Shown: positions 330 through 46,838 of the stretch, in pieces
Layout of the letters: the number at the start of each line of letters is the position of its first letter
How positions within the stretch are numbered: the stretch's first letter is position 1
Source: an uncultured Candidatus Peribacteria bacterium
Lineage (GTDB): Bacteria > Patescibacteriota > Gracilibacteria > BD1-5 > JAGOOR01
Reading direction: 5' to 3'
Length of the DNA stretch: 46,932 bases
Assembly (NCBI GenBank): GCA_964603225.1
Contig: CAZRUI010000001.1
Span: 1 to 46,932, forward strand
The notes under the pieces: generated by a model
What the model saw: only the letters and a program-made list of their open reading frames with translations
Database searches by the model: none
What the model was told of the DNA's origin: nothing
Program-made: the position numbers and the translations under genes

Positions 330-1580
330 GTGCTCGCCATCGTCGGCTTGGGATACGTCGGTTTGCCCCTCGCGCATGCGTTGGCGTCTAAGGGTTACCG
401 CACGGTCGGCTTCGATAGTAGTGCCGACCGCATCGCGGATCTGAGAGATGGGCGAGACCGGACGGAGGAGCTCACACCGGAGCAGCTCAAGGGCAGCACC
501 ATCGAATTTACGGATGATCCCGCAGTCTTGAAGCAGGCGGATATCCTCATCCTAGCGCTGCCCACCCCGGTGGACCACAAGAACGTGCCTGACCTCACGC
601 TGCTAGCCGCCGCTTCCCAGACCGTAGGGCGGAACCTGAAGAAGGGCGCGATCGTGGTCTACGAGTCCACCGTCTACCCCGGCGTCACGGAGGAGTTCTG
701 CGGCCCTATCCTTGAGCGGGAATCTGGCCTGACGTGCGGGAAGGACTTCACACTGGGCTACTCCCCGGAACGCATCAACCCCGGCGACAAGCAGCACACT
801 GTCACCAAGATCACCAAGATCGTGGCCGGGCAGGACGCCGCCACGCTGGATACGCTTGCGGACCTCTACGGATCAATGATCGAAGCCGGCATCCACCGCG
901 CGCCATCCATCAAGGTGGCGGAGATGGCCAAGGCGATCGAGAACGCTCAGCGAGACCTCAACATCGCCTTCATGAACGAGATCGCGCTCCTGTGCCACCG
1001 CCTGGAGATCCGCACCCGGGACGTGCTGGACGCCGCCCGGACTAAGTGGAACTTCTTGCCGTTCACACCGGGCCTAGTGGGCGGCCACTGCATTGGCGTG
1101 GATCCGTACTACTTGGTGGAGAAAGCTCGGCTGCTGGGGATGCCGACGCACGTCATAACCGCCGGCCGGGCGCTGAACGATTCTATGGCCCAAAAGGTGG
1201 CGGACCAGGTGGCGGAGTCGCTGGGATCGCAGGACGCCCGGGTGCTGGTGTTGGGCCTCACGTTCAAGGAGAACGTACCGGACACACGCAACAGTAAGTC
1301 TCGGGACGTGGTGAACACGCTCCTCAAGCACGGCTACACGGTGGAAGTGCACGATCCGTTCGCGGACGCGGCGGAGCTTAGGCGGCAGAATTTGGCAGGA
1401 GGATCGCTTCAGGTGGACACGTATGACGCAGTGGTACTCCTGGTCCCGCATAAGGCCTACCTGGACGCCCTGCCGGACGTGGTGGGCGCCGTGAAGGCCG
1501 GCGGCCTGGTGTACGATCTCAAATCCGTCTTGGATCCGGCTGCCATCACCGCCTCCGGCCGCACGTATCTGGCGCTGTGA
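330..1580 (+). CDS. Nucleotide-sugar 6-dehydrogenase (UDP-glucose/GDP-mannose dehydrogenase family, TviB/WbpO-like UDP-HexNAc dehydrogenase)
   Basis: 416-aa ORF with GTG start. Rossmann motif IVGLGYVGLPLA, catalytic-Cys motif GGHCIGVDPYYL, C-terminal domain LGLTFKENVPDTRNS. Confidence 0.85.
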   Translation: MLAIVGLGYVGLPLAHALASKGYRTVGFDSSADRIADLRDGRDRTEELTPEQLKGSTIEFTDDPAVLKQADILILALPTPVDHKNVPDLTLLAAASQTVGRNLKKGAIVVYESTVYPGVTEEFCGPILERESGLTCGKDFTLGYSPERINPGDKQHTVTKITKIVAGQDAATLDTLADLYGSMIEAGIHRAPSIKVAEMAKAIENAQRDLNIAFMNEIALLCHRLEIRTRDVLDAARTKWNFLPFTPGLVGGHCIGVDPYYLVEKARLLGMPTHVITAGRALNDSMAQKVADQVAESLGSQDARVLVLGLTFKENVPDTRNSKSRDVVNTLLKHGYTVEVHDPFADAAELRRQNLAGGSLQVDTYDAVVLLVPHKAYLDALPDVVGAVKAGGLVYDLKSVLDPAAITASGRTYLAL

Positions 1581-5797: not shown

Positions 5798-6721
5798 TCA
5801 TGCGGCGTTCTCCCGCCACCACTCCGCCGTCCGCCGCAAGCCCTCCGCCAGGGGCGTCCATCGCATGTCCGCCAATGCTGGGTGACGCGTATCCGGAGCG
5901 AACACGAGCGACGCTGAGGGCTTTGCTGGATCGAACGCCAGTTCCAATCCCGGCTGGTTCAGGTCCACAATCATCCGCGCCAGCTCCGCCATGGTCGTCT
6001 TGCCATCCGGCACAAGGAGCTGGATGCCGGTCGCATCAGCGACCAGGAGCCGGAAGACCGCCTCCACGGCATCTTCCACAAAGAGGAACTGCCGCACGGC
6101 CGTGCCGTCTCCCCACACGGATAGGGATCCTCTGGCTGCCGCCGACCGGACCATGAGCGCCGGAATCACGTTGCCGTCCTCCGCAAACCGGTCCCGGGGA
6201 CCGTAGACCCCCACCGGCCGGGGGATGAGGAGCGGCAAGCCGAATTCATGGGACGCGGCGATCCACTGCGCTTCACAGAGCGCCTTGCCAAGGCCATACC
6301 CGTCGATCGCCTCCGCCGACGCAAGCGCGGAGAGATCTATGACCGACGGCGCCAGGGCCGTGCTCATGCACACGGTCCAGAGAGGGTACGATTGGGCGGC
6401 GCCGGCCAGCGCCAGCGTCATCTCCAGATTCCGCGCCAGGACCGTGGCGGGCTCCGCCCGGTGAAGAGCCACGTTCTTCCGGTAGGAAGCCAGGTGGAAG
6501 AGGAGATCCGCACCGTCAATCAGCGACTCGCAAAACGCGCTATCCGACAGATCGCCCATGCGCCAGTCAATGCGGTGCGCAACGTGCTCCAGAAACCCGT
6601 GGTCCGCGCGCCGGGTGGGCACGCGTACGGATGCGCCCTCTTTCAGGAGGCGCTCCACCATGAAGCTGCCGATGAATCCCGTGCCCCCCGTCACCACCGC
6701 CGTCGTCCCCTGCCAGTTCAT
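5798..6721 (-). CDS. NAD(P)-dependent epimerase/dehydratase (extended SDR); candidate GDP-4-keto-(3,)6-deoxyhexose reductase/epimerase
   Basis: ORF track 5798..6757. Start moved to ATG 6721 ([19 protein letters not shown]), which forms an ATGA overlap with the gmd stop. Motifs TGGTGFIG and YGLGK (YxxxK). Substrate is inferred from neighbours only. Confidence 0.75.
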
Positions 6722-7818: not shown

Positions 7819-7936
7819 CCAAGGGTGAAAAAGGCGACAAGGGCGGAAGTGAAAAAAGGAAAGGCAAACCGTTGTCACCCTTTCGACCCCTTTCACCCTT
7901 TTTACCTTTTTAGCCCTTTCGATCCTTTTTACCTTC
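7819..7936. repeat. Imperfect inverted repeat built from AAAGGG/CCCTTT-type 9-10 nt tandem units
   Basis: Left arm 7821-7865 (aagggtgaaaaaggcgacaagggcgg..), right arm 7877-7935 (accctttcgacccctttcaccctttttacc..). Fills the spacer between the stop at 7939 and the gmd -10 box. Confidence 0.7.
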
Positions 7937-7938
7937 CA

Positions 7939-9381
7939 CTATCGCCACTTCAGCTTCCTCGCTCCGTGGAAGAACATCCTCATCAGCAGCCACGCGTGGT
8001 GGAAGCGGCGGATCTTTGTCACCCCGTACGTCCGTTCCAGGTAGCGGACCGGCACCTCCCGCATCTTGAGCTGCTGCTCCGCCGCCCCTAGGAAGAAATC
8101 GAAGTCCCCAAAGGGATCCATCCGCGAATCCATCCGCCGGTAGTCCGCGCGGAAGAAGGCTTTGACCGGAGAGAGGGTGTCCACCAGCTTCTGGCTGAAG
8201 AGCCAGGAGAAGATGAGGCTGAAGGTCTTGTTGCCGAGCAGATTGAGGAAGCGCATCGCGCCCTGTTCCAGGGGATACACGAGCCGCGAAGCGTTCACCA
8301 TCTCCCCCTTGCCGGTCTCCAGGACGTCGATGAGCTTGGGCAGTTCGCTCGGGTGGACGGTAAAGTCCCCGTCATAGATCACAATGATGTCCCCCGCGGA
8401 CGCTGCCGCCCCGCAGTGGAGCGCGTCCGCCTTGCCGCGCCCCGGCTGCTTGATCCCGCGCACGGTGAGGCCGGGCCAGCTGAGGGCGCTCACGCGCTCA
8501 ATCTCCTCCCACGTGCCGTCGGACGAATGCCCTTCCACAAAGAGGAGCTCGGTCCTCAGGCCCATCTTGGGCATGGCCTTGGCAATCGGTTCGATGTTCC
8601 CGCGCTCGTTCCGCACGGCGGAGAGCACCGTCACCGTCTTAGAAGCGCGGCCCGTCGGCCGCGGCCGCGCGATGATCGTCTTCACCAGGCAGAGCGACCG
8701 GAAGAGCGGCAGGCTGGCCAGCACGCGGTTGCAGAAGGGCTCGATGAGAGGGATCCCCACCGGCAGCAGCACGCGACCGCCGGTCTGCACCGGCTCGAAT
8801 CCCGTGAGATCCAGGAGATTCACGATGTCCGCCCGGGAGAGCCAGTTCTGCTCCGGGAACCGCGTCTTGTATCCCAACGTCTCCCCCAGCCAGAAGAGCG
8901 GCTGCCACAGGAAGTTGTAGTGCGTGATCACCAGCCGCGTCCGGTTGTGACAGAGGCGGGCGTGGATCTGCTCCAGCGCCGCCTGCACGTCGCTCAGGTA
9001 GTTGATGGTGTCCAGGAGGAGGACGTAGTCGTACGTTCCTTGATGTTCCAGCCTCTCCGCGTCGTCCACCCGGTAGTCGGTCAATGGATCGGCCTTGCGA
9101 GCGCACTGGATCATTTCCGGCGAGAAGTCGAGTCCCACCTTCTTCATGTTCGGCAACGGCGCCAATGCCAGGCCCGTCCCGCAGCCAACCTCAATGACGC
9201 TCATCTCCGGCCGGATGAGCTGCCTGAGCCACCGGTCGCGATCGCGGTAGTACGTCCGGTGCCGTCTGGCATCCCGGGCGCGGTGAGCGGCCAATTGGTC
9301 GAAGTACTGGCGGCGCGCCGCCTCGCGTGAGGGGCCGGCGGCATCCAGGGAGAGGGAGCCCGTCGTCATAGTCGAATACAC
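7939..9381 (-). CDS. Fusion protein: class I SAM-dependent methyltransferase (N-terminal) plus GT2 glycosyltransferase (C-terminal)
   Basis: 480 aa. N-terminal half has VIEVGCGTGLALAPL and YDYVLLLDTINYL. C-terminal half has VTVLSAVRNERGNI, LFVEGHSSDGT and IIVIYDGDF (DxD). Start is GTG 9381 or ATG 9369. Confidence 0.8.
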   Translation of the reverse strand: MYSTMTTGSLSLDAAGPSREAARRQYFDQLAAHRARDARRHRTYYRDRDRWLRQLIRPEMSVIEVGCGTGLALAPLPNMKKVGLDFSPEMIQCARKADPLTDYRVDDAERLEHQGTYDYVLLLDTINYLSDVQAALEQIHARLCHNRTRLVITHYNFLWQPLFWLGETLGYKTRFPEQNWLSRADIVNLLDLTGFEPVQTGGRVLLPVGIPLIEPFCNRVLASLPLFRSLCLVKTIIARPRPTGRASKTVTVLSAVRNERGNIEPIAKAMPKMGLRTELLFVEGHSSDGTWEEIERVSALSWPGLTVRGIKQPGRGKADALHCGAAASAGDIIVIYDGDFTVHPSELPKLIDVLETGKGEMVNASRLVYPLEQGAMRFLNLLGNKTFSLIFSWLFSQKLVDTLSPVKAFFRADYRRMDSRMDPFGDFDFFLGAAEQQLKMREVPVRYLERTYGVTKIRRFHHAWLLMRMFFHGARKLKWR

Positions 9382-9399
9382 AGGGAGCTGGAAGACCGG

Positions 9400-10569
9400 T
9401 CAGAGCAGGCTGCAGAGCAGATCCACTTCCTCCGCGCGCAGATCCGGACGGTTGGGGAAGTACAACCCGTGCTCGTGGACGGAGGAGGCGTTGGGACACC
9501 GGTCCGCCGGAGCGTGCTTCCGGTAGAACGGGTGCCGCGTGATATCCCCGGCAATCACCGGCCGCACTTCCACGCCGGCATCCCGGAAGCGCGCAATCGC
9601 AGCTGCCAGCGTGTCCGCCTGCCGGCAGACCACCGGCATGGCAAAGCTGGATACCCGCTCCAGGTGTGACGGATCAAGCGGCTCGTACAAATCGGACTTG
9701 GCGCGCAGGCAGGCCAGGAAGCGCTGGAAGTTGGCCTCCCGGGCGGAGATCGCCTTCATCAGAAGCGGCAGCTGGATGTGTCCCAAAAACCCCTGCATCT
9801 CCGTGGGCCGGGCGTTGTAAGCCAGATGGTAGAACGTGTACTGCGCGTGGAAATCCGAGACACCGTGCTCCTTCCTGAGCGCCGCCTGGACCGGTCTGGG
9901 CAGTTGGCGGTCCCACCCGTGCGCCCGCACCATGATGAGCATCTGCGCCAGCTCCTCCTCATCCGTGCACACCATGCCGCCCTCCACCGTGGAGAGGTGA
10001 TGCCCCACAAAGAAGGAGAATGTGGACGCCAGCCCCATATTCCCCAGGAGCTTCCCCTGGTGCGTAGAACCAAGCGCCTCGCAGTTGTCCTCCAGGAGCA
10101 AGACGCCCTCGTCCCGGCACAGCGCCGCAATGGCTGAGAGATCATCGCACAGGCCAAGGACGTTGGTGAGGAATACGGCGGCAAGCCCTTTGATCCGGTC
10201 CTTGAGGATGTCCGGCGACGTGTTCAGCGTGGCAACCTCGCAGTCCAGCGGCACCGGCACCATGCCCAGCTGAATGATGGGCATGACGTTGGTGGCCCAC
10301 GTGAGCGCGGAGAAGCCCACGCGGTCACCGGGCTTGAGCCTGCCCAGGTTCAGGAGCGCCTGCAGGAGGAGGAGGTTGGCCGCGCTGCCGCTGCTCACGA
10401 ACACCGCATACCGCCGCTCCTGCCACGCGCAGAAATCCGTCTCAAACTGCCGGCACGCGTCGCCCATGCTCAGCCGGGACGCCCCGCGGATGAAGGCGAT
10501 CAGTTGCTCTTTGGTCTCCGCCTCCTGAAAGAAGGTAGAGTGCATGAGAGGGATGTTGGCAAGCGCCAT
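9400..10569 (-). CDS. PLP-dependent sugar 3-dehydratase, ColD/E1-like (DegT/DnrJ/EryC1 fold with His replacing the Schiff-base Lys)
   Basis: ORF track 9400..10650. Start moved to ATG 10569 (MALANIPLMHSTF), with TACCAT 6 nt upstream. Motifs VFVSSGSAANLL and LLLEDNCEALGS. FSFFVGHHLSTVEGG carries His where aminotransferases carry Lys. RAHGWDR and EVRPVIAGD match my recollection of E. coli ColD. Confidence 0.8.
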   Translation of the reverse strand: MALANIPLMHSTFFQEAETKEQLIAFIRGASRLSMGDACRQFETDFCAWQERRYAVFVSSGSAANLLLLQALLNLGRLKPGDRVGFSALTWATNVMPIIQLGMVPVPLDCEVATLNTSPDILKDRIKGLAAVFLTNVLGLCDDLSAIAALCRDEGVLLLEDNCEALGSTHQGKLLGNMGLASTFSFFVGHHLSTVEGGMVCTDEEELAQMLIMVRAHGWDRQLPRPVQAALRKEHGVSDFHAQYTFYHLAYNARPTEMQGFLGHIQLPLLMKAISAREANFQRFLACLRAKSDLYEPLDPSHLERVSSFAMPVVCRQADTLAAAIARFRDAGVEVRPVIAGDITRHPFYRKHAPADRCPNASSVHEHGLYFPNRPDLRAEEVDLLCSLL

Positions 10570-38767: not shown

Positions 38768-38855
38768 CAGAGGACTCAGAGGATCCAGAAGACTCAGAAG
38801 AACGCTGTGCCACATCCGCTGAGTCCTCTGCGTCTTCTGAGTCCCCTGAGTCTTA
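38768..38855. repeat. Hairpin with arms of tandem 9-mers (CAGAGGACT type)
   Basis: Left arm cagaggact cagaggatc cagaagact cagaag. Right arm ctgagtcct ctgcgtctt ctgagtccc ctgagtctt. About 24/30 complementary by eye; 18-nt loop. Confidence 0.8.
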
Positions 38856-39965
38856 TCGGGCGAAGCCCTTCAGAAACTCCGCATACTGCCTGATCAGTGT
38901 CTTCCGCTCAAACCGCTCCAGGATCTTCCGCGCCGCCTGGCCCAGGCGCTCCTGGACGGCAGTATCCGTAAGCAACCGGCTGATCTGCCGCGACAGGTCA
39001 CGGACCGAGCCGTCTGTGAACACGCCATTCTCCCTGTCACGGATCACCTCCGGCATCGCGCCCACGCGCGTGGCAATGACGGGCAGACCTAAGGCCATCG
39101 CCTCCAGCGCGCTGCGCGGACCGCCCTCGCTCCTGGAGTTCATCACAAAGATCCGCCCGCTCTGCATCGCATGTACCAGCTGCCGCTGATCAGGCAACCA
39201 GCCGGCGAACGCCACGCGGTCGGCCATCCCTCTCGTTTGTACGCGCCTCTGCAGGCGCGTCTTGAGCGGCCCGTCGCCGATCAGGAGCAGGCGCACGCCG
39301 GGGAGCGCGCCCACCGCGTCGATCAGCTCCAAAAGCCCCTTATTGGCCACCAGCCGCGCCGCAGTGACCACGTCGTACGCCTTTGCGACGGCTGCGTCCG
39401 GCTTCAGGGCACCTGCATCCAGGTAGAACGAAGGAACGAGGCGGAGCTTCTCCCCCGGTACGCCCCAGGCAACCAGCAGGTCCATCACCGACCGGCTCAC
39501 CACCCGCACGCCGCAGGCCCGCCGCGCCGCCCAGGGCAGGTAGAGGCGGGACATCAGGCGACCAGCGCGCTCCGCGAGCGACGCCGCCGTGGGCGCACCC
39601 ACCACGTGGTGCACTTCCAGGACGTACGGGATACCGGACACGCGGTGGAGCTTCCTTGCCCCCAGTCCATTGAAGAACGGCGGGTACTCATGGACGGTCA
39701 TCACGTCATGATGATGGTCGGCGATCAGCTGCGCCCCCTTCTCCGTAATCCATCTCTTCTGCCACGCGAGCGGCCATGGGGAGGGGTGGAACCACACATT
39801 CTCAAATTCCGACGTCTGACCACTAACCACTGGCCACTGGCCACTCCTTGGACAGATCACATCCACCCGCTCCCAATGCGTATGGAACTCTTCCAGGGTG
39901 TGCCAGAACGCCCCCCGCTTCCCCGCCAGGATGGAACGGTCGCCGGAGATCATCAAAAGCTTCAC
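38853..39965 (-). CDS. Glycosyltransferase family 1 (GT4-type)
   Basis: ORF track 38853..40025. Start moved to GTG 39965 (VKLLMISGD), with CATAAT 6 nt upstream. Motif NSRSEGGPRSALEAMALGLPVIAT. Contains the in-frame heptamer array at 39816..39845 (SGQWPVVSGQ). Confidence 0.8.
   Translation of the reverse strand: MKLLMISGDRSILAGKRGAFWHTLEEFHTHWERVDVICPRSGQWPVVSGQTSEFENVWFHPSPWPLAWQKRWITEKGAQLIADHHHDVMTVHEYPPFFNGLGARKLHRVSGIPYVLEVHHVVGAPTAASLAERAGRLMSRLYLPWAARRACGVRVVSRSVMDLLVAWGVPGEKLRLVPSFYLDAGALKPDAAVAKAYDVVTAARLVANKGLLELIDAVGALPGVRLLLIGDGPLKTRLQRRVQTRGMADRVAFAGWLPDQRQLVHAMQSGRIFVMNSRSEGGPRSALEAMALGLPVIATRVGAMPEVIRDRENGVFTDGSVRDLSRQISRLLTDTAVQERLGQAARKILERFERKTLIRQYAEFLKGFAR
39816..39845. 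repeat. CCACT-heptamer array embedded in frame in a GT4 CDS
   Basis: ctgaccact aaccact ggccact ggccact. Translated on the minus strand as SGQWPVVSGQ. Confidence 0.75.
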
Positions 39966-39970
39966 AGCTG

Positions 39971-40046
39971 AATTATGAATGAGGAATGATGAATCATGAA
40001 GGCCAGCCGCCGCATACTTCCTCATTCACGATTCCTGATTCTTAGG
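39971..40046. repeat. Hairpin with arms of tandem heptamers (GAATGAG/GAATCAT type)
   Basis: Left arm aattatg aatgagg aatgatg aatcatg aagg. Right arm cttcctcattcacgattcctgattcttagg. The right arm encodes the last codons of 40026..41237; the left arm contains the -10 of 38853..39965. Confidence 0.8.
39972..39977 (-). promoter_or_regulatory. -10 box CATAAT, 6 nt upstream of GTG 39965
   Basis: Reverse complement of attatg. Lies inside the hairpin arm. Confidence 0.5.
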
Positions 40047-41237
40047 AGCGGCAACTCCTTCAGCTAGCCCCTCAAACAGCTCCATCCACTCATCCGCCAC
40101 CTGCTCCCAGCTGCGCGCGGGGAGAGGCGCGGACGCAGCCTCCGCTGCTTCCGCATAGGATTGTTCCAGCTCCAGCACCGCCCGGGCAATGTCCTCCGCC
40201 TCCCGCAGGGGCGCAAGGACCATGCCCGCCGTGAGCTCCGGAGAGAGGCCCGTCTCCTCCGTGAGGAGGACCGGCATGCCCGCCGCGCGCGCCTCCAAGG
40301 CCGCATTGGGGCTGATCTCCGTGAGGGACGGAATGACCAGCGCGTCATGGTCCCGGAATACCGCCGCCTTCTCCGTAGGCCCCCTGGATGCCTGGAAGCT
40401 CACGCGATCGATGATCATGAGCGCTTGCGCCTCCTGCTTGAGCTGTTTCAAGAGCGGCCCCTCTCCCACAACCGACAGCCGCACGTGCGGCAGCCGCGCC
40501 ACGGCCCGGAGCAGGGCGGAGAGGTTCTTGAACCCCACCAGCCGCCCGAACCACAGGAGCCGCACCGGCCGCTCTTTGAGCTCTGCTGCTCGCGCGGCGT
40601 ACGGCACGTCCGCCGGCAAATTGAGGGAGGGGAACGCGTTCTGGATCACCAGATGCCGCCGGATATCCGGGTACGCCAAGCGGTAGAGGTGCTCCTGGAA
40701 CGCCGTGGTGAAGGCGATGGCATGGAACCTGGGGAGGAGCGGCTGGAGGAACACGCGGTTGAGCCGCCGCGTGAGGCGGTAGGCGAGCGCGTCCTGCACC
40801 GTGCCGCTCGCGGAAACCGGCCGCGACCGGTACCACTCCCGGAGCGTCCGCTTGCCACCCATCCCCGTGTACCGCTCCCAGAAGTAATCCCCGCCCACGC
40901 GCAGCACCCGGTACGGCTTCTTCAGTTTGGCCATTCTGAGCGGCATGCCCACGGAGACGGAGGAGAACGCCAGCACCACGTCCGCGTCCGCCGCGTACCG
41001 GCGCAATACCCCCGCGTACCGCCGCCAACGCACCACCGGCCCGCCCGCGCGGGACACCCGCACCACCGGCATGCCGCCGCTCTCATCCCGCGCCACTCCG
41101 CCCTTCACCTCCTTGGCGAACGTGATGACCGTCACATCCTGTCCCCGCCGCAGGAGCTCCTTGCCCAGCGCATCCACGTACGTAGCCGGACCGCCGATCT
41201 CCGGAAGAGCGATGCCGGTAGCGAGGATAATCTTCAT
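40026..41237 (-). CDS. Glycosyltransferase family 1 (GT4-type)
   Basis: 403 aa, starts MKIILATGIALPEIGGPATY. Motif PSLTEISPNAALEARAAGMPVL. ATGA overlap with the upstream four-helix-bundle gene. The last 7 codons are encoded by the hairpin arm. Confidence 0.85.
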   Translation of the reverse strand: MKIILATGIALPEIGGPATYVDALGKELLRRGQDVTVITFAKEVKGGVARDESGGMPVVRVSRAGGPVVRWRRYAGVLRRYAADADVVLAFSSVSVGMPLRMAKLKKPYRVLRVGGDYFWERYTGMGGKRTLREWYRSRPVSASGTVQDALAYRLTRRLNRVFLQPLLPRFHAIAFTTAFQEHLYRLAYPDIRRHLVIQNAFPSLNLPADVPYAARAAELKERPVRLLWFGRLVGFKNLSALLRAVARLPHVRLSVVGEGPLLKQLKQEAQALMIIDRVSFQASRGPTEKAAVFRDHDALVIPSLTEISPNAALEARAAGMPVLLTEETGLSPELTAGMVLAPLREAEDIARAVLELEQSYAEAAEAASAPLPARSWEQVADEWMELFEGLAEGVAAPKNQES

Positions 41238-41623
41238 GAGATGTGGGACTTGAGTGATGAGACTTGAGTGAGAAGCTTGCTGTGAAAACTGTGCAGCATA
41301 CGGCTCAACCCATCAATGGATTCCAGGATGCACGGAGCGCGATCTTCAGTTATTCGACCAAGTTCCCTAGCGATGATCACCTGAGTTTCCAGTTCGGCCA
41401 GAGACCCACGGGCAATAAGGAGAAAATTTGCGAATTCTTTAACCGTACTACGCTGGCTACCTTCAGCGATATTCGATGGCACAGAAACAGCAGCTCGACG
41501 CATCTGGGAAGTTAAGCCATAGAGCTCTGTCTTGGGAAACTCTTCTGTGCACTCATAGATCATCTTCACAATCTCAATGCTTTTCTGCCAAATCTTTAGC
41601 TTTTTATAAGACATGCCAATCAT
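41234..41623 (-). CDS. Four-helix-bundle protein (23S rRNA intervening-sequence protein / Avd-like family)
   Basis: 129 aa. Motifs YKKLKIWQKS, LTSQMRRAAVSVPSNIAEG, FANFLLIARGSLAELETQ. TACTAT sits 6 nt upstream of ATG 41623. About 46% GC by hand count over 41281..41640, against GC-rich neighbours. Confidence 0.85.
   Translation of the reverse strand: MIGMSYKKLKIWQKSIEIVKMIYECTEEFPKTELYGLTSQMRRAAVSVPSNIAEGSQRSTVKEFANFLLIARGSLAELETQVIIARELGRITEDRAPCILESIDGLSRMLHSFHSKLLTQVSSLKSHIS
41238..41275. repeat. Left terminal inverted repeat (ACTTGAG/TGATGAG heptamers) flanking the four-helix-bundle ORF
   Basis: Segment 41247-41275 (gacttgagtgatgagacttgagtgagaag) matches the reverse complement of 41637-41667 at 22/29 positions (hand alignment). 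Confidence 0.75.
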
Positions 41624-41629
41624 ATCGCC

Positions 41630-41635
41630 ATAGTA
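41630..41635 (-). promoter_or_regulatory. -10 box TACTAT, 6 nt upstream of ATG 41623 (four-helix-bundle gene)
   Basis: Reverse complement of atagta. Confidence 0.5.
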
Positions 41636-41636
41636 C

Positions 41637-41667
41637 TACTCATGTCTCAAGTCTCATATCTCAAATC
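41637..41667. repeat. Right terminal inverted repeat flanking the four-helix-bundle ORF
   Basis: Sequence tactcat gtctcaa gtctcat atctcaa atc. Overlaps the rfbB stop codon (41661-41663). Confidence 0.75.
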
Positions 41668-42599
41668 TTCTTCGTATACCAGTCAACCGTCCGCTCGATC
41701 CCCTCCTCAAACGCCACCCTGGGTTCCCAGCCGAGCGAGCGGATGAGGCTTGAATCCACGCGGTAGGCCCAGTCATGACCTGGACGATCCGGGACGAATT
41801 CGATCAGGCTCTCCGGTTTCCCCAGGATCCGGAGTACCGTCCTGGCGACTTCAATATTCTCTCTCTCCTGGTCGGGACCGATCAGGTACACCCAGCCGTC
41901 TTCGCCTTTCTCCCGCACCAGCTCCACCGCGTCGGTGTGGTCCGTCACGTACAGCCAATCCCGCTTCTGTTTGCCCTGCCCGTAGAGGGGAATATTCCCG
42001 TTTGCGAGCGCGTTCCGGATGATCACCGGGATGAGCTTGGTCTTGTCCTGGTGCGGACCGTAGTTGTTGGTACAGCGGGTGATGCGGATTTTGAGGTCAT
42101 ACGTGCGGCGCGCGGCCAGGAGCATCAGATCGCCCGCCGCCTTGGTGGCCGCATAGGGATTGGACGGCCGCAGGGGTGACTCCAGGTTGAACGCCGGCTC
42201 GTCATCCTGCACGTCGCCGTAGACCTCGTCGGTGGAGACGTGGACGAGCAGGATTGCCGGGTGGGCTTTGAGGATCTCCATGAGGCTCTGCACGCCCACG
42301 ATGTTCGCATGGAGGAACGGCAGCGCGTTCTCAATCGACCGGTCCACGTGCGTCTCCGCGGCAAAATTCACGATCTGCTCAATGCCGTACCGCGTGACCA
42401 GCTGCTCCAGGAGCTCCACATCCGCAATGTCCCCCTGGATGAACCGGATCCGGTTAATGACGGAGTCCAGAAGACTCTTGTCCGCCGCGTAGTTCAGGCT
42501 GTCCAAAACGATGACCGTGTCGTCCGGATACCGGTCGATATGCCGCAGGACGTAGTGGGAACCGATGAAGCCCGCTCCTCCGGTTACTAAGATGGTCAT
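41661..42599 (-). CDS. rfbB: dTDP-glucose 4,6-dehydratase
   Basis: ORF track 41661..43124. Start moved to ATG 42599 (MTILVTGGAGFIGSH), with TATCCT 6 nt upstream. Motifs YAATKAAGD (YxxxK) and CTNNYGPHQ. Confidence 0.92.
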   Translation of the reverse strand: MTILVTGGAGFIGSHYVLRHIDRYPDDTVIVLDSLNYAADKSLLDSVINRIRFIQGDIADVELLEQLVTRYGIEQIVNFAAETHVDRSIENALPFLHANIVGVQSLMEILKAHPAILLVHVSTDEVYGDVQDDEPAFNLESPLRPSNPYAATKAAGDLMLLAARRTYDLKIRITRCTNNYGPHQDKTKLIPVIIRNALANGNIPLYGQGKQKRDWLYVTDHTDAVELVREKGEDGWVYLIGPDQERENIEVARTVLRILGKPESLIEFVPDRPGHDWAYRVDSSLIRSLGWEPRVAFEEGIERTVDWYTKKI

Positions 42600-42617: not shown

Positions 42618-42705
42618 CGATTGAATGTGGAATATCGAATGTCGAATTTCGAGTAAGAATGGTTGGCTGATCGATATTCCATATTCGACATTCGGTATTC
42701 GAACC
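42618..42705. repeat. Hairpin with arms of tandem heptamers (TCGAATG/GGAATAT type)
   Basis: Left arm cgattgaatgtggaatatcgaatgtcgaatttcga. Right arm gatcgatattccatattcgacattcggtattcgaacc. About 23/33 complementary. Lies between the divergent rfbB and rfbA -10 boxes. Confidence 0.8.
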
Positions 42706-42743: not shown

Positions 42744-43493
42744 ATGAAGGGCGTCCTCATCTGCGGCGGTACCGGCTCGCGCCTGCGGCCGCTCACGGAG
42801 ATCACCAATAAGAGCCTCCTGCCGGTCTACGACCGGCCACTCATCGATTACCCGCTGCAGGTGCTCCTCCGCGCGGGCATTGCGGACATCATCGTCATTA
42901 CGGGGCCGGAACACATGGACCAGATCGCCGCGTTCCTGGGTTCCGGAGAGAAGTTCGGCTGCACGTTCGCCTTCCGGGTGCAGGAGAAGCCGGGCGGTAT
43001 TGCGCAAGCACTGGGGCTGGCGGAGGAGTTTGTGGCCGGGGACATCCTCTGCGCGATCCTGGGGGACAACGTCTACTTGGATGACCTCTCTCCGGCCATC
43101 AAAGCGTTCGAACACGGGGCGCATGTGTTCCTAAAGGAAGTGCCGGATCCGGAGCGCTTTGGCGTTGCCGAGGTCCGGTCGTCACTGACCACCGACCACT
43201 CGCCACTGACCACTGTGGTATCGATCGAGGAAAAACCCTCCGTCCCCAGATCGAACCTGGCCGTCACTGGCTGCTACCTCTACGATGCCCGGTGTTTTGA
43301 CTTCATCCGCACGCAGGAACCCTCCCCCCGGGGCGAGCTGGAGATCACGGACGTGAGCCGCCGCTACCTGGAACTGGGCGAACTCCAGGCGTCCGTGCTG
43401 ACGGACGAATGGATCGATGCCGGAACGTTCGAGAGCCTCTACCGCGCGGCGACCGTGGTGCGGGAGCGGCGCCTCTCCGCTGCCGAGTCATGA
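42744..43493 (+). CDS. rfbA: Glucose-1-phosphate thymidylyltransferase (short-form sugar nucleotidyltransferase)
   Basis: ORF track 42663..43493. Start moved to ATG 42744 (MKGVLICGGTGSRLRPLT), with TACAAT 8 nt upstream. Motifs NKSLLPVYDRPLIDYPL and SIEEKP. In-frame heptamer array at 43181..43215 (SSLTTDHSPLTT). Confidence 0.88.
   Translation: MKGVLICGGTGSRLRPLTEITNKSLLPVYDRPLIDYPLQVLLRAGIADIIVITGPEHMDQIAAFLGSGEKFGCTFAFRVQEKPGGIAQALGLAEEFVAGDILCAILGDNVYLDDLSPAIKAFEHGAHVFLKEVPDPERFGVAEVRSSLTTDHSPLTTVVSIEEKPSVPRSNLAVTGCYLYDARCFDFIRTQEPSPRGELEITDVSRRYLELGELQASVLTDEWIDAGTFESLYRAATVVRERRLSAAES
43181..43215. repeat. CCACT-heptamer array embedded in frame in rfbA
   Basis: gtcact gaccacc gaccact cgccact gaccact g. 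Translated on the plus strand as SSLTTDHSPLTT, between the conserved FGVAE and SIEEKP. Confidence 0.75.
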
Positions 43494-43981
43494 CAACAGT
43501 GCTGCACGCCGGGTTGGAGGAACTTGTCGCGCGAGCCGAAGCCGAAGGCCGCACGCTGGTGGTAGGCGCGGGGATCCAGCACGCAGGCCGCCTGCTCCTG
43601 GTCCGCCGCGCAACTACGGAAAATTTTCTGGCTGAGTACTGGGAAGTCCCCGGCGGCAAGGTAGACCAAGACGAATCGATCTTAGATGCGCTCGTACGGG
43701 AAGTCCGCGAGGAGACAGCCCTGGAGATCAGAGACATTCGTGACTGCGTCGGCATGTTCGATTACGACCTTCCGGAAGGCCTCTTCTGCCAGTTCACGTT
43801 CCTGGTGGACGTGACGCACCCTCACCTCACCCTCAATCCCGCGGAGCACGACGCGCGTCGGTGGATCCATCCGAGCGAGCGGCCGACGCTCGATACCCTG
43901 CGCCTTACGCCCCAGATGCGCGCTATGCTAGCAGTCCTGTTCCACCGGATGGAGGGTCAGGCCACCAGCATCTCCGCGTAG
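43490..43981 (+). CDS. NUDIX hydrolase
   Basis: ORF track 43409..43981. ATG 43490 forms an ATGA overlap with the rfbA stop. Nudix box GGKVDQDESILDALVREVREETAL. Confidence 0.85.
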   Translation: MTTVLHAGLEELVARAEAEGRTLVVGAGIQHAGRLLLVRRATTENFLAEYWEVPGGKVDQDESILDALVREVREETALEIRDIRDCVGMFDYDLPEGLFCQFTFLVDVTHPHLTLNPAEHDARRWIHPSERPTLDTLRLTPQMRAMLAVLFHRMEGQATSISA

Positions 43982-45114
43982 ACCTGGCCGTACCGGGCCG
44001 CTATGGCGGACCAGTCGTAGTGCTGAGCATGTTGGCGACCGGCCTCAGCGGCCTGTTCGCGGAGTTTCGGGTTCTGGAGATACACTTGAATCGCCTCCGC
44101 CGCTGCGGCCGGATCATCTGGCGCAACTAGCGTCCCCGCCGCTTTGGGCACGATCTCCGGGATACCCTGGACAGTTGTAGCCACCACCGCGCAGCCCGCT
44201 GCCTGCGCTTCCAGGAAGACGTTCCCAAACGCCTCCGATCGCGACAGCCCGCAGAAGACCTCCGCCTCTGCGAACTCCCGCAGGAGATCTAGACCCGTGA
44301 GGTACCCCCGGAACGTCACGTGCCGATCGACCCCCAGTTCCCGGGCCAGCTGCTGGAGCTGTTTCCTGAGCGAACCATCGCCCACGATGTGCAGATGTGG
44401 AGCGATGAGCGATGAGCGGGTAGCGGTGAGCTTGGCTGCTCCTTGTTTCCGCCCGCCGCTCACAGCTCTCCGTTCGCGCTGACCACTGACCGCTGACCAC
44501 TGACCGCTCACTATCGCGAACGTTCGCAGAAGAACATCCACCCCCTTCATCGGCTCCAGACGGCCAACGAACAGCACCCGCTCCGGCACCTTGTCCCATT
44601 GACCGCACACCTCACGGGTGGCGTCCAGCGGGATACCGTTGGGGATGAGAGTCACGTCCGTACGGCCCAATGACGCGGCCCGGTCGATCAAGACCTGGCT
44701 AATAGCGGTGAGGCGGTGCGGGGCGCGGTGGATGGGACCGAGCAGGAAGGAAGTGTTCGTGCTCTGGAGCGTGAGGAGCCGCCGGGCATCCGGCACCAGC
44801 ATGCGCGCACACAGGAGCGCCACTCCGGCGTAGGATTCCAGCACGGCATGGAGGAGCGCGGGCCGCAGCCGCCTAGCGGTCCAGGCACTGAGGAGCGGGA
44901 AGAGCCACTTGTCGATCGGGAGGCCCAGGCCCACCCGGACAACGCTCACGCCCAGGAGGTCATCCTGCCGGGGCAAGCGGAGCCGCATGCGCGCCGTGAT
45001 GATCACCACGTCATAAGAGGCCGCAAGCCGCACCGCCACCTCCTCCGCGCACGCCTCCGCCCCGCTCCGCAGGGGGGAGAGGAACGCGGAGAGGACAACG
45101 ACACGCTGTTTCAC
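43957..45114 (-). CDS. Glycosyltransferase family 1 (GT4-type) carrying a translated hairpin-repeat insertion
   Basis: ORF track 43957..45168. GTG 45114 (VKQRVVVLSAF) preferred; ATG 45168 possible. Motif SRSEAFGNVFLEAQAAGCAVVAT. About 36 extra residues (SGQWSAVSGQ...TRSSLIA) lie just before the conserved HIVGDG. Confidence 0.8.
   Translation of the reverse strand: MKQRVVVLSAFLSPLRSGAEACAEEVAVRLAASYDVVIITARMRLRLPRQDDLLGVSVVRVGLGLPIDKWLFPLLSAWTARRLRPALLHAVLESYAGVALLCARMLVPDARRLLTLQSTNTSFLLGPIHRAPHRLTAISQVLIDRAASLGRTDVTLIPNGIPLDATREVCGQWDKVPERVLFVGRLEPMKGVDVLLRTFAIVSGQWSAVSGQRERRAVSGGRKQGAAKLTATRSSLIAPHLHIVGDGSLRKQLQQLARELGVDRHVTFRGYLTGLDLLREFAEAEVFCGLSRSEAFGNVFLEAQAAGCAVVATTVQGIPEIVPKAAGTLVAPDDPAAAAEAIQVYLQNPKLREQAAEAGRQHAQHYDWSAIAARYGQVYAEMLVA
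44400..44511. repeat. Complete two-armed GGTCAGT-family hairpin element embedded in frame in a GT4 CDS
   Basis: Arm 44400-44431 (gagcgatgagcgatgagcgggtagcggtgagc) matches the reverse complement of 44478-44509 at 23/32 positions (hand alignment). The right arm contains a perfect 14-nt tandem duplication (gctgaccactgacc x2). Confidence 0.75.
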
Positions 45115-45119
45115 AGTAC

Positions 45120-45198
45120 GGAATGGAAAATTGAAAATGGACAACGCACAATGACCGTCATTGTACATTGTAAATTGCCCATTCTACATTTCCCATTC
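45120..45198. repeat. Hairpin with arms of tandem heptamers (GAATGGA/AAATTGA type) plus a central perfect palindrome
   Basis: Left arm ggaatggaaaattgaaaatggacaa. Centre acaatga-ccg-tcattgt (45148-45164). Right arm ttgcccattctacatttcccattc. Confidence 0.8.
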
Positions 45199-46315
45199 AC
45201 GCGCTCTGCGACATCAATGCAAACAAATCTTGGTACTGCTTCCCCACCGCCTCCCAGCTGAAGTGCTCCTGGATCCGCTGCCGCGCCGCCTGCCCCATGG
45301 CCCGCCGCTTGGCGGGGTCCTCAAGCAACCGGCGAACGTGCGCCGCCAGGGCTTCTCGGTCCCCGGGCGGGAAGAGGAGCCCGGAGACGCCGTTCTGGAG
45401 GAGGAACCGGTTCCCGCCCACGTCGGTTGCTATGCACGCGCAGCCGCTCGCCATGGCTTCCATGAGGGCGTTACTGAGCCCCTCGCTGTGGCTGGGAAGA
45501 ACAAAGATGTCCGTCCCGGCCAGTACCGCCGGAATGTCGTCCCGCAAGCCGGTGAACGCCACGTCCCGCTCGTACCGCCGCACGAGCGGGTGGCCGTCCC
45601 GGTACCAACCAACTACTTGCAGCTTGAGGCGGGAATGGCTCTTTTTGAGCGGCACAACCGCTTCAAGGAAGTCATCGACGCCCTTGATGGACTCCAGCCG
45701 ACCGACGTATGTGACAGTGATCGCAGCGGAATCTGACCACTGACCACGGACTACCGACCACTGTGCCGGATCGATCCCGGTAGGAATCACTTGGCTCTTC
45801 CCAGCAAGGCCAAGCCGCCTCAGGAGCCGCTCCGGCTGCGGATGGAAGAACACGATTCTGGCAGCGCACAGCAGGATCAACCACCCCAGCGTCCACGCAT
45901 AGATGGCCGCGGCAATTTTGGGCAACCTGCCGCGCGGCCACCACGTCATGCCCACCAGGGCGTCCGTGAGCAGAATCACCCGCCGCCCCCGGAGCGCCAG
46001 GGAGAGGACGGACAGGGACGTCCAGAACAGAATCTTATTTACCACCACGATATCCGGCTGCTCCGACCGGATGAGCGCCCGCACGCGGCGGGAGAAGCCC
46101 CAGGCGATCCCATAGTTCCACGGATCGGGCAGGAAGAAGTCCCGGAAACGGTGAATGGCCAGCGTAGCCGAGACACGCTCTCCCCCCGTCTCCGCCCCCA
46201 TGCAGGCCATGATGACCCGGAAGCCCAGCCGCTGCCACAGTTCCGCCAGTTTCACCGAGCTCACCATCCAGCGGTGCTGCTCCTGCCAGTAGGGGGAGAT
46301 AAGGAGGATCTTCAC
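45197..46315 (-). CDS. Glycosyltransferase family 1 (GT4-type)
   Basis: 372 aa, GTG start (MKILLISPYW). Motif PSHSEGLSNALMEAMASGCACIAT. In-frame heptamer array at 45733..45763 (QWSVVRGQWS). Confidence 0.85.
   Translation of the reverse strand: MKILLISPYWQEQHRWMVSSVKLAELWQRLGFRVIMACMGAETGGERVSATLAIHRFRDFFLPDPWNYGIAWGFSRRVRALIRSEQPDIVVVNKILFWTSLSVLSLALRGRRVILLTDALVGMTWWPRGRLPKIAAAIYAWTLGWLILLCAARIVFFHPQPERLLRRLGLAGKSQVIPTGIDPAQWSVVRGQWSDSAAITVTYVGRLESIKGVDDFLEAVVPLKKSHSRLKLQVVGWYRDGHPLVRRYERDVAFTGLRDDIPAVLAGTDIFVLPSHSEGLSNALMEAMASGCACIATDVGGNRFLLQNGVSGLLFPPGDREALAAHVRRLLEDPAKRRAMGQAARQRIQEHFSWEAVGKQYQDLFALMSQSA
45733..45763. repeat. CCACT-heptamer array embedded in frame in a GT4 CDS
   Basis: ctgaccact gaccacg gactacc gaccact g. 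Translated on the minus strand as QWSVVRGQWS. Confidence 0.7.
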
Positions 46316-46320
46316 GGAGC

Positions 46321-46396
46321 GGTCAGAAGCGAGTGGTCAGTGATCAGTATGAGGAAAAAATCCACACCTGGCCACTGACCCCTGACCACTGATCAC
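46321..46396. repeat. Hairpin with arms of tandem heptamers (GGTCAGT / CCACTGACC family)
   Basis: Left arm ggtcaga agcgagt ggtcagt gatcagt. Right arm ctggccact gacccct gaccact gatcac. About 19/27 complementary. The loop contains a CATACT -10-like box for the minus strand. Confidence 0.8.
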
Positions 46397-46755
46397 TCTT
46401 CTGTGGAACTCTCATCCTGCGCCAAGCCGGCCTCTCTCAGCGCAATTTCCCTGACCAACTTGGCCTGCCGCTCTTCCAGCTCCTCCAACCGGATGACCAG
46501 GTAGAACACCATGAAGAAGAGGATGCCCAGGAACGTCACGACCACCGCGTTTTCCCGGTCGGCAACCCCCGTCAGGGCAGAGAGCGTGGTGAGGAGGTCC
46601 GGCAGGAGCGCAATGAGCGCCACCAATCCCCAGAAGAACGTCCAGAGCAGCGCTTCCCACACCGTCTTCTTGCCCCGCCGCACCAGCCCCCACGCGTACG
46701 CGACCGCGACCAGGGACAGGAGCGGCGCGATGATCTGGTAGGGGGTGAGAGACAT
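46393..46755 (-). CDS. DUF2304-family small membrane protein
   Basis: 120 aa with three or four TM spans, then a charged coiled tail (RLEELEERQAKLVREIA). This type usually sits next to a GT2 gene. Confidence 0.7.
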   Translation of the reverse strand: MSLTPYQIIAPLLSLVAVAYAWGLVRRGKKTVWEALLWTFFWGLVALIALLPDLLTTLSALTGVADRENAVVVTFLGILFFMVFYLVIRLEELEERQAKLVREIALREAGLAQDESSTEE

Positions 46756-46758
46756 GAC

Positions 46759-46838
46759 GCGAATGTTGAATAGCGAATGGCGAATGTGGAATACCGATGG
46801 GGTTCGACATTCGACATTCTATAGTCGATATTCGATCC
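46759..46838. repeat. Hairpin with arms of tandem heptamers (GCGAATG type; same family as 42618..42705)
   Basis: Left arm gcgaatg ttgaata gcgaatg gcgaatg tggaata ccg. Right arm ggttcgacattcgacattctatagtcgatattcgatcc. Shares cgaatgtcgaa and gaatatcga strings with 42618..42705. Confidence 0.8.

Follow-up and report, generated by a model that had tools for sequence, protein, structure and literature searches.

Intervening sequences (IVSs) with an open reading frame (ORF) occur in the 23S rRNA of Coxiella, Leptospira and others. The IVS of Coxiella burnetii is 428-444 nt long, lies in helix 45 of 23S rRNA and has a 28-bp terminal stem; RNase III cleaves it in vitro. Directly before its ORF stand GACAGAT heptamers in tandem, three to four of them depending on the strain (PMC4990558). 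Genes of the same protein family, 23S_rRNA_IVP (PF05635), have been reported from within cas operons (PMC3936711) and from insertions in the rRNA of candidate phyla radiation (CPR) bacteria (bioRxiv 10.1101/2024.02.27.582315). Here, we analyse a stretch of 46,932 nt (the window) from an uncultured CPR bacterium, a Candidatus Peribacteria bacterium. At 41237-41670, it carries a gene for a four-helix-bundle protein of this family, bracketed by two inverted arrays of heptamers. We consider it likely that this segment is one copy of a widespread IVS-type insertional cassette, lodged in an mRNA operon in the spacer between rfbB and the glycosyltransferase gene GT1. The IVS build itself is already known from 23S rRNA (Coxiella); the new aspect is an IVS-type element that lives in mRNA operons.

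Tandem heptamers have also been described outside rRNA. Calothrix PCC 7601 has three tandem heptanucleotides, known as STRR. Xanthomonas genomes contain GGGAATC arrays (70-75 convergent pairs per genome), which together with the GGGGA(T/C)T heptamers of Nostoc have been described as G-quadruplex-forming repeats (PMC4692102). One four-unit GGGAATC array covers the start codon of XCC0516 (table in the supplement of PMC4692102). In the literature we covered, which is incomplete, so that a prior description is possible, no paper ties PF05635 genes outside rRNA to flanking heptamer arrays.

The cassette between rfbB and GT1

The cassette and its two neighbours comprise the following features (5' and 3' in the sense of the gene):

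41638..41670 (-): 5' arm, ~4.5 degenerate heptamers, G-rich on the sense strand
41624..41637 (-): 14-nt spacer from the 5' arm to the ATG, holding TACTAT; no evident Shine-Dalgarno sequence
41234..41623 (-): four-helix-bundle protein gene, 129 aa, PF05635/TIGR02436, 46% GC
41237..41269 (-): 3' arm, C-rich on the sense strand, complementary to the 5' arm, ending at the GT1 start codon
41661..42599 (-): rfbB, dTDP-glucose 4,6-dehydratase, upstream of the cassette (TIGR01181, 392 bits against a cutoff of 365)
40026..41237 (-): GT1, GT4-family glycosyltransferase, downstream of the cassette; adjoins rfbB without a cassette in four syntenic Peribacteria

On the gene strand, the rfbB stop codon (41661-41663) lies within the outer end of the 5' arm and is followed by the rest of this arm, the spacer, the ATG, the ORF, the 3' arm and the GT1 start. 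The 5' arm reads GAAGATT TGAGATA TGAGACT TGAGACA TGAG, and the 3' arm encodes the final ~11 codons of the ORF (QVSSLKSHIS). Three ungapped pairings join the arms over a distance of 368-377 nt: 41237-41261 with 41639-41663 (25 nt, 84%), 41247-41268 with 41646-41667 (22 nt, 86%) and 41239-41269 with 41638-41668 (31 nt, 74%). An earlier reading of the sequence alone, made by a model (the sequence-only reading), had described a stem-bounded ORF whose arms match at 22/29 positions and stand 361 nt apart. The layout of cognate inverted arms around the ORF is borne out, and both numbers come close to the computed pairings.

Inverted repeats of 23-39 nt at 70-77% arise frequently by chance in this GC-rich window; hence, we relied on a best-partner test. 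Of all sites in the 46.9 kb, it is the right arm that pairs best, in inverted orientation, with the left arm, at 23/33 (mean 8.2, standard deviation (sd) 2.4; ~6 sd above the mean), and the next two partners are the right-arm site shifted by one heptamer (7 nt). Arms of different window hairpins pair at 16/31 at most. The left and right arms are therefore cognate. RNA folds of the cassette, both minimum free energy (MFE) and centroid, are closed by the arm-arm stem (z-score -1.0), and the same stem closes both folds of a related cassette on contig L009 (z-score -2.7).

A 7-bp direct repeat, AATCTTC (GAAGATT on the gene strand), immediately borders the inverted arms on their outer sides (41229-41235 and 41664-41670); it supplies the final codons of rfbB and the initial codons of GT1. 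This repeat is probably due to chance, since 55 other loci show none beyond controls, and we reject it as a target-site duplication on the same grounds.

The ORF is intact, with 129 codons in the open reading frame list. It matches PF05635 with 132.8 bits (cutoff 33.8, E 6.7e-39, profile positions 1-105 of 106), TIGR02436 ('four helix bundle protein', also labelled 'S23 ribosomal protein') with 122 bits (cutoff 24) and NF008911 with 144.4 bits (cutoff 137). The proposed membership in the 23S-IVS-protein family is thus secure, with PF05635 and TIGR02436 both well above their cutoffs. Among solved structures, the best sequence match is to XCC0516 of Xanthomonas campestris (PDB 2GSC chain A, E 2.3e-27). 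The motif GxxRxxxSxxxNxxE, a conserved signature of the family (PMC3936711), is present as R43-x3-S47-x3-N51-x2-E54; S47, N51 and E54 are invariant among 39 homologues, and in the subfamily of the window protein Q40 takes the place of the initial G. An alternative start at 41614 (MSYKK...) agrees with most homologues, the nearest of which come mostly from Peribacteraceae and Peregrinibacteria. PADLOC returned no defence-system match for the cassette locus, and a link to defence was dropped.

The start and stop of the gene had drawn attention in the sequence-only reading. The proposed leaderless signal, TACTAT followed by 6 nt and the ATG at 41623, is present as a sequence. As a promoter it is rejected, since a consensus scan of the region gave one promoter-like site against 0.8 expected, and this site is a different one. 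At the other end, the stop codon overlaps the GT1 start as ATGA (41234-41237), just as described. A stop/next-start overlap is also found in the second cassette of L009. Family-wide the overlap is rare (3/58 loci), which leads us to reject ATGA translational coupling as a general device.

The cassette is poor in GC, with 45.8% over 41281-41640 (~46% by the earlier count) against 64.0% for the window. It is the lowest-GC of all 390-nt windows in the 46.9 kb, ~5 sd under the mean (mean 0.640, sd 0.035), and GC at third codon positions is 49% in the four-helix-bundle gene against 85% in GT1 and 81% in rfbB. We do not, however, follow the view that this marks the insert as compositionally foreign. 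In the family survey presented below, the cassette interior lies below its flanks in 57 of the 58 arm-positive loci (mean gap 8.4 points), and interior and flank GC are correlated with r = 0.91. The dip is a constant family trait atop host adaptation and therefore, taken alone, no proof of recent import, though the 18-point gap at the window locus is above the family mean of ~8.

How does this locus compare with rRNA IVSs? Both place a gene of the same protein family in the loop and have the same size, ~430-460 nt. The cassette further shares with the Coxiella IVS its complementary termini (a stem of ~25-30 bp), tandem heptamers 5' of the ORF and a sporadic presence among related genomes. The closing terminal stem and the sporadic presence of an rRNA IVS are thus found at the window locus. 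An insertion in rRNA is not: Rfam detects no rRNA within the window, and the cassette sits in the mRNA of a polycistronic glycan operon, flanked by rfbB and a GT4 glycosyltransferase. Unlike in rRNA IVSs, the window ORF reads through the 3' arm into the start codon of the next gene. RNase III excision is demonstrated for the Coxiella IVS and would apply to the window cassette by analogy. A cut in the mRNA separates cistrons, whereas the cut rRNA pieces of IVS hosts stay together in the ribosome. Finally, the ORF is decaying in Coxiella, while a dN/dS (nonsynonymous over synonymous substitution rate) of ~0.19 for the pair L016/L019 in our survey indicates that the four-helix-bundle protein is under purifying selection where this is measurable.

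Four syntenic loci from Peribacteria metagenome-assembled genomes (L004-L007), found via the GT1 protein, which matches them at 59-62% identity, keep the gene order X-GT4-rfbA/rfbB-GT1-GT2-GT3 in 4/4 cases. In none of the four does tblastn detect a four-helix-bundle gene between rfbB and GT1. The junction is empty in L007 (136 nt) and holds a (TTGG)n run in L005 (232 nt), in both cases without a hairpin. L004 and L006 carry unrelated low-GC ORFs there on the opposite strand (9394-9966(-), 190 aa, and 811-1362(-), 183 aa, respectively), for which we found no Pfam family and no inverted arms. These contents argue that the junction is an insertion hotspot, that the cassette is not ancestral there and that arms go with the four-helix-bundle gene in particular. 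The sequence-only reading had asked for empty sites in the form of a short-loop hairpin. The empty sites exist in the sense that the gene is absent from four relatives; a hairpin-only allele at rfbB/GT1 is found in none of them. At equivalent junctions, the relatives do have short hairpins with other units.

In the L005 spacer, 6534-6605 is occupied by ~16 TTGG units and then by AACGATA-like repeats, with the G/T-rich part ahead of the A/C-rich one. This stretch may be a badly decayed arm pair; a search of the L005 rfbB/GT1 spacer detected no inverted repeat.

Inverted heptamer arrays across the family

Three Peribacteraceae contigs with homologues of the gene (L008, L009 with two copies, and L011) provided four more copies, located in sugar-nucleotide or housekeeping operons. 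All four are bracketed by inverted heptamer arrays 349-387 nt apart, and all have a lower GC than their flanks. Their units (GTGGCTA, CAGAGAG, TGAGCTT and CAGAAAT) are all different, even between the two copies of L009, i.e. within one genome.

We then surveyed 80 metagenome loci retrieved with the family alignment, 78 of which were usable. The arm score is the best ungapped inverted match between the gene ends, and the control applies the same geometry shifted along the same contigs:

Median arm score: 31 at family loci (n=78), 16 at shifted controls (n=1141)
Arm score of at least 24: 58/78 family loci (74%), 15/1141 controls (1.3%)
Arm score of at least 32: 37/78 family loci, 1/1141 controls

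The expectation that other copies would also be flanked by inverted heptamer arrays therefore holds, in 4/4 Peribacteraceae copies and in 58/78 loci overall. Among the positive loci, the arm period is 7 in 51/58 and 8 in six, and the median span from arm to arm is 458 bp. G outnumbers C in the 5' arm at 52/56 loci (p = 1e-11); because the arms are inverted, this G-rich-first rule is independent of the strand that is read. AG is part of the repeat unit in 37/43 loci and AGT in 26/43. The gene is co-directional with both neighbours in 36 of the 44 resolvable loci. When gene identity and arm similarity were compared over the 58 loci, close paralogue pairs were lacking, with a maximum of 77% DNA identity. 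Short-loop heptamer hairpins occur in the flanks of 22/87 loci from many taxa.

An Rfam scan of 39 loci placed none inside an rRNA gene (0/39) and one between tRNA genes. In this locus (L025, 187-906), the four-helix-bundle gene at 449-817 lies between tRNA genes at 187-260 and 834-906, another operon context with processed RNA.

Finished plasmids of cultured cyanobacteria rule out an artefact of metagenome assembly, since arms surround 4/6 of their four-helix-bundle genes. Of the four armed copies, one separates the two ribonucleotide reductase subunits, one cas6 from cas4 and one cmr2 from cmr3; the fourth lies in a series of hypothetical genes. The two armless copies are found on plasmid gamma of Nostoc PCC 7120 (L092) and on a plasmid of Calothrix PCC 7716 (L095). 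One of these two sits between two insertion sequence (IS) transposase genes, which suggests that the armless copies represent rearranged or secondary contexts.

The Xanthomonas and cyanobacterial heptamers resemble the cassette arms in several respects. They are intergenic tandem heptamers, often in convergent pairs with the G-rich strand inward; they vary in length between close relatives and are transcribed (PMC4692102). Moreover, such heptamer arrays border cyanobacterial four-helix-bundle genes, and XCC0516, with an array at its start, is a PF05635 protein. In contrast to the locus-specific units around cassettes, the Xanthomonas unit is near-uniform genome-wide, and no link to the four-helix-bundle gene is drawn in PMC4692102.

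ORF-less hairpins and the L009/L011 pair

On L009 and L011, a cassette occupies the same site, between two epimerase genes. Both arms of L009 are two heptamers longer than those of L011 (15 nt and 14 nt), and the arms stay matched. Repeat units have thus been gained or lost in parallel in both arms. At the DNA level, L009 and L011 are ~90% identical across the flanking genes against 57-78% between the arms, and the outer arm portions match the flanks in conservation. The synonymous divergence (dS) is ~0.5 for the flanking genes and saturated for the four-helix-bundle gene. This suggests that the cassette interior has a history separate from that of its flanks. Since UDP-glucose dehydrogenase on the same contigs has also diverged, we treat cassette turnover at a fixed site as suggestive only.

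The second cassette of L009 lies between PfkB and UDP-glucose dehydrogenase, with arms at 173-204 and 582-614. At this junction, L011 has no gene. In its place stands a short hairpin whose arms, CTTTGAGTGGA / TCTACTCAAAG (437-447 and 471-481), enclose a loop of 23 nt; an array of CTCAAAG-type units follows. The loop contains AAAGAATACAACAT, a 14/14 nt match to the L009 gene found among collinear local matches. In L009, AAAGAATACAACAT forms the MLYSF codons, a conserved family motif near the C-terminus. Because its loop keeps these 14/14 nt of the gene, the L011 hairpin is a cassette that lost its ORF. Judging from this match, the decay of cassettes accounts for at least part of the orphan heptamer hairpins. 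A hairpin-only allele, which the sequence-only reading had proposed to look for, is thus found for a sister cassette.

The window itself has ORF-less hairpins in number. Its final 9 kb form a glycan cluster in the order GT3-GT2-GT1-cassette-rfbB, divergent rfbA-NUDIX, then GT4-X, and short-loop hairpins of heptamer or 9-mer arrays, each with its own unit, occupy nearly every junction. The window's hairpins, to which no strand is assigned, are:

38768..38848: ORF-less short-loop hairpin at the GT2/GT3 junction; arms at 38768 and 38819; period 9/18 nt (TRF), not 7; loop 21 nt; G-rich arm first
39970..40044: ORF-less short-loop heptamer hairpin at the GT1/GT2 junction; arms at 39970 and 40013; unit GAATGAT; loop ~15-21 nt
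42630..42700: ORF-less short-loop heptamer hairpin in the divergent rfbB/rfbA spacer; arms at 42630 and 42675; unit GAATNTC; loop 19 nt
45121..45198: ORF-less heptamer-array hairpin at the GT4/X junction; arms at 45122 and 45157
46317..46398: ORF-less heptamer-array hairpin upstream of gene X; arms at 46317 and 46368; unit AGTGGTC/CTGACCA; loop 20 nt
46759..46836: ORF-less heptamer-array hairpin; arms at 46759 and 46803; units GCGAATG / TTCGATA
7821..7900: short-loop hairpin of 9-nt repeats, AAGGGTGAA / ACCCTTT; arms at 7821 and 7878; G-rich arm first

The G-rich arm comes first in all seven, and a block-shuffled window contains zero such hairpins. The hairpin at 7821..7900 possibly belongs to the same class as the heptamer hairpins. 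Those at 42630-42700, 45121-45198 and 46759-46836 share GAATNTC-type units and cross-pair at 23-25/31-33, little worse than within each hairpin; the three may have arisen by copying from one to another. The link between the IVS-like cassette and the other intergenic heptamer hairpins, which was at the core of the sequence-only reading, is supported.

Some of these units recur elsewhere. CTGACCA (reverse complement TGGTCAG) is found at 39816-39845, 44479-44505, 45733-45763 and 46368-46397, and three of the sites lie inside glycosyltransferase genes, where they give peptide inserts of the SGQW/VVSGQ type. AGTGGTC is also an arm unit of two unrelated cassettes (L040 and L089). An in-frame heptamer array within rfbA (43183-43215) encodes SSLTTDHSPLTT in a surface loop between FGVAEV and VVSIEEKP. 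At the same rfbA loop, L007 carries a whole short-loop hairpin in frame (8272-8336, 28 extra residues), and L004 and L005 have 12 and 5 extra residues, respectively. The in-frame arrays in the rfbA loop of the window and of L007 indicate that heptamer elements also enter coding sequence and get translated. The NUDIX hydrolase gene between rfbA and GT4 (43409-43981) is missing from all four syntenic Peribacteria relatives.

Mechanism, alternatives and meaning

From the observed architecture and its generality, the absence in four syntenic relatives, the co-orientation with operons and the one relic, we propose the following model. The element, ~390-560 bp as a whole, would consist of a PF05635/TIGR02436 gene of ~115-130 codons between two inverted arrays of 3-6 degenerate heptamers, a G-rich array 5' and a C-rich array 3', with a locus-specific unit that is often AGTNNNN. 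The cassette would be transcribed by read-through from the operon, and in the transcript the arms would pair into an imperfect stem of ~25-30 bp. If RNase III cuts this stem, as it does in rRNA IVSs, a small mRNA would be freed and the rfbB and GT1 cistrons would be parted. If the stem stays uncut, the ATGA overlap could keep GT1 translationally coupled in the window copy. The solved relatives XCC0516 and Avd form pentameric barrels, and Avd binds nucleic acid, which makes binding of the four-helix-bundle protein to the heptamer arms a natural hypothesis; the protein may thus act on the arms. The seven ORF-less hairpins of the window would be decayed or non-autonomous versions of the cassette.

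Alternatively, the hairpins could be host elements (mRNA stabilisers, processing sites or REP-like sequences), in which case the arms would belong to the site and the four-helix-bundle gene would be a passenger landing in their loops. The seven ORF-less hairpins of the same build in the window, their counterparts with other units at equivalent junctions of the relatives and the site-specific repeat unit would all fit such an origin. The L009/L011 pair would fit as well, since its outer arms are conserved like the flanks around a far more diverged interior, which resembles an exchange of loop content. However, the empty rfbB/GT1 junctions of L005 and L007 have no hairpin, and the other small inserts at this junction gained no arms. 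Furthermore, arms accompany 74% of the family across phyla, even where short hairpins are rare, and the one hairpin-only allele, in L011, bears an ORF relic, so that here the hairpin came from the cassette. We regard a host origin of the hairpins as unlikely, and the direction implied by the sequence-only reading, a gene dropped into an existing hairpin loop, is doubtful in view of the hairpin-free empty junctions and the L011 relic.

It is quite improbable that the gene is not mobile but an ancestral part of the operon, lost in four relatives, with the arrays as its private regulatory element (an autoregulatory site or a coupling device). Purifying selection on the protein, a gene GC that follows that of the host (r = 0.91), the co-orientation with the operon and the overlap of stop and next start in the window copy and in L009 copy 2 would suit a resident gene. 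Yet the overlap is confined to 3/58 loci, the GC stays under that of the host in 57/58, and the gene is missing in 4/4 syntenic relatives, where the junction holds other, unrelated inserts. The family also appears in unrelated operons: glycan, CRISPR-cas, ribonucleotide reductase, tRNA and rRNA (PMC3936711). That the gene encodes the Avd accessory protein of a diversity-generating retroelement (DGR) we consider hardly tenable. The window protein is predicted to share the four-helix-bundle fold of DGR Avd (bAvd) and has detectable sequence similarity to it, including weak matches to PF22296 (22.7 bits), NF033474 (29 bits) and PHROG 3206 'Avd protein of DGR' (E 1e-9). Both curated models nevertheless remain under their cutoffs (40 and 80 bits, respectively), and the neighbours are rfbB, rfbA, NUDIX and glycosyltransferases, with no reverse transcriptase and no template/variable repeat pair nearby; the six two-copy direct-repeat families around the gene (11-25 nt, 72-92% identity) include none that is template/variable-like. 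Chance complementarity of unrelated low-complexity repeats at two junctions has the abundance of chance inverted repeats in this GC-rich window in its favour. It is refuted by the best-partner test, in which no other site in 46.9 kb pairs as well with the left arm as the right arm does and heptamer-shifted registers rank next, and by the survey, in which the pattern recurs in 58/78 independent loci against 1.3% of controls; we give it practically no credence.

Several observations weigh against an insertional cassette, the reading that we prefer. No clear arms are seen in 20/78 family members. The fold z-scores are weak (-1.0 for the window, -2.7 for L009), and the non-Watson-Crick positions of the arms comprise 157 G.T and 155 A.C, as in neutral decay of a DNA inverted repeat. 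The excess of G.U that is expected if the stem is selected in RNA is therefore absent, which is uninformative or mildly against selection at the RNA level. Target-site duplications are not seen, the longest flanking direct repeat having a mean of 3.80 against 3.79 in controls (56 loci). Nor is a transposase or other mobility gene present, and the element itself encodes no enzyme. Gain and loss at the rfbB/GT1 junction are not formally separable, because the empty-site relatives are distant (~60% amino-acid identity). The divergence between L009 and L011 is uneven, with UDP-glucose dehydrogenase at 74% amino-acid identity and a dS of 1.6. A relic-bearing hairpin was found just once, and by eye no ORF relic is recognisable in the 1-34-nt loops of the window's own short hairpins.

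The cassettes also invite comparison with MITEs (miniature inverted-repeat transposable elements) and with repetitive extragenic palindromes and bacterial interspersed mosaic elements (REP/BIME). All are short, multi-copy intergenic hairpins, and the relation of full-length to ORF-less derivatives, proposed here on the basis of the L011 relic, would be a further parallel. Unlike MITEs and REPs, the cassettes lack shared termini, target-site duplication, and a transposase or REP-associated tyrosine transposase (RAYT), and the protein they encode, a small helical bundle, has no known catalytic motif. A comparison of arm units revealed no terminal sequence common to the copies. By the marks of an IS or MITE, the window locus shows no target-site duplication, no shared terminal inverted repeats and no transposase.

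A wider version of the insertional reading is possible, although we would sooner bet against it. Here, PF05635 genes and inverted heptamer arrays would form a single, very widespread and unrecognised insertional class, of which rRNA IVSs with an ORF are the subset that landed in rRNA. Orphan heptamer hairpins and arrays (those of Peribacteria, the GGGAATC pairs of Xanthomonas, the STRR-type repeats of cyanobacteria and even in-frame arrays inside genes) would be ORF-less remnants or non-autonomous derivatives, and the protein would recognise or propagate the arrays. That the family and its arms underlie the orphan heptamer repeats of several phyla is plausible, if unproven.

Taken together, the data place three long-separate puzzles in one frame: the nature of rRNA IVSs and of the ORFs in some of them, the role of the abundant four helix bundle/S23 proteins, and the over-representation of heptamers in bacterial genomes. 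The ORF and its paired inverted heptamer arrays travel together, and they do so in mRNA operons far more often than in rRNA. These ideas are testable in culturable hosts such as Nostoc, Anabaena and Xanthomonas. Annotation is concerned as well: gene callers currently accept arm-encoded N- and C-terminal tails, and heptamers inserted in frame into enzymes, as they stand, although such features resemble artefacts. In the Peribacteria bacterium studied here, the elements punctuate the whole glycan cluster, and the expression of operons in CPR bacteria may be affected.

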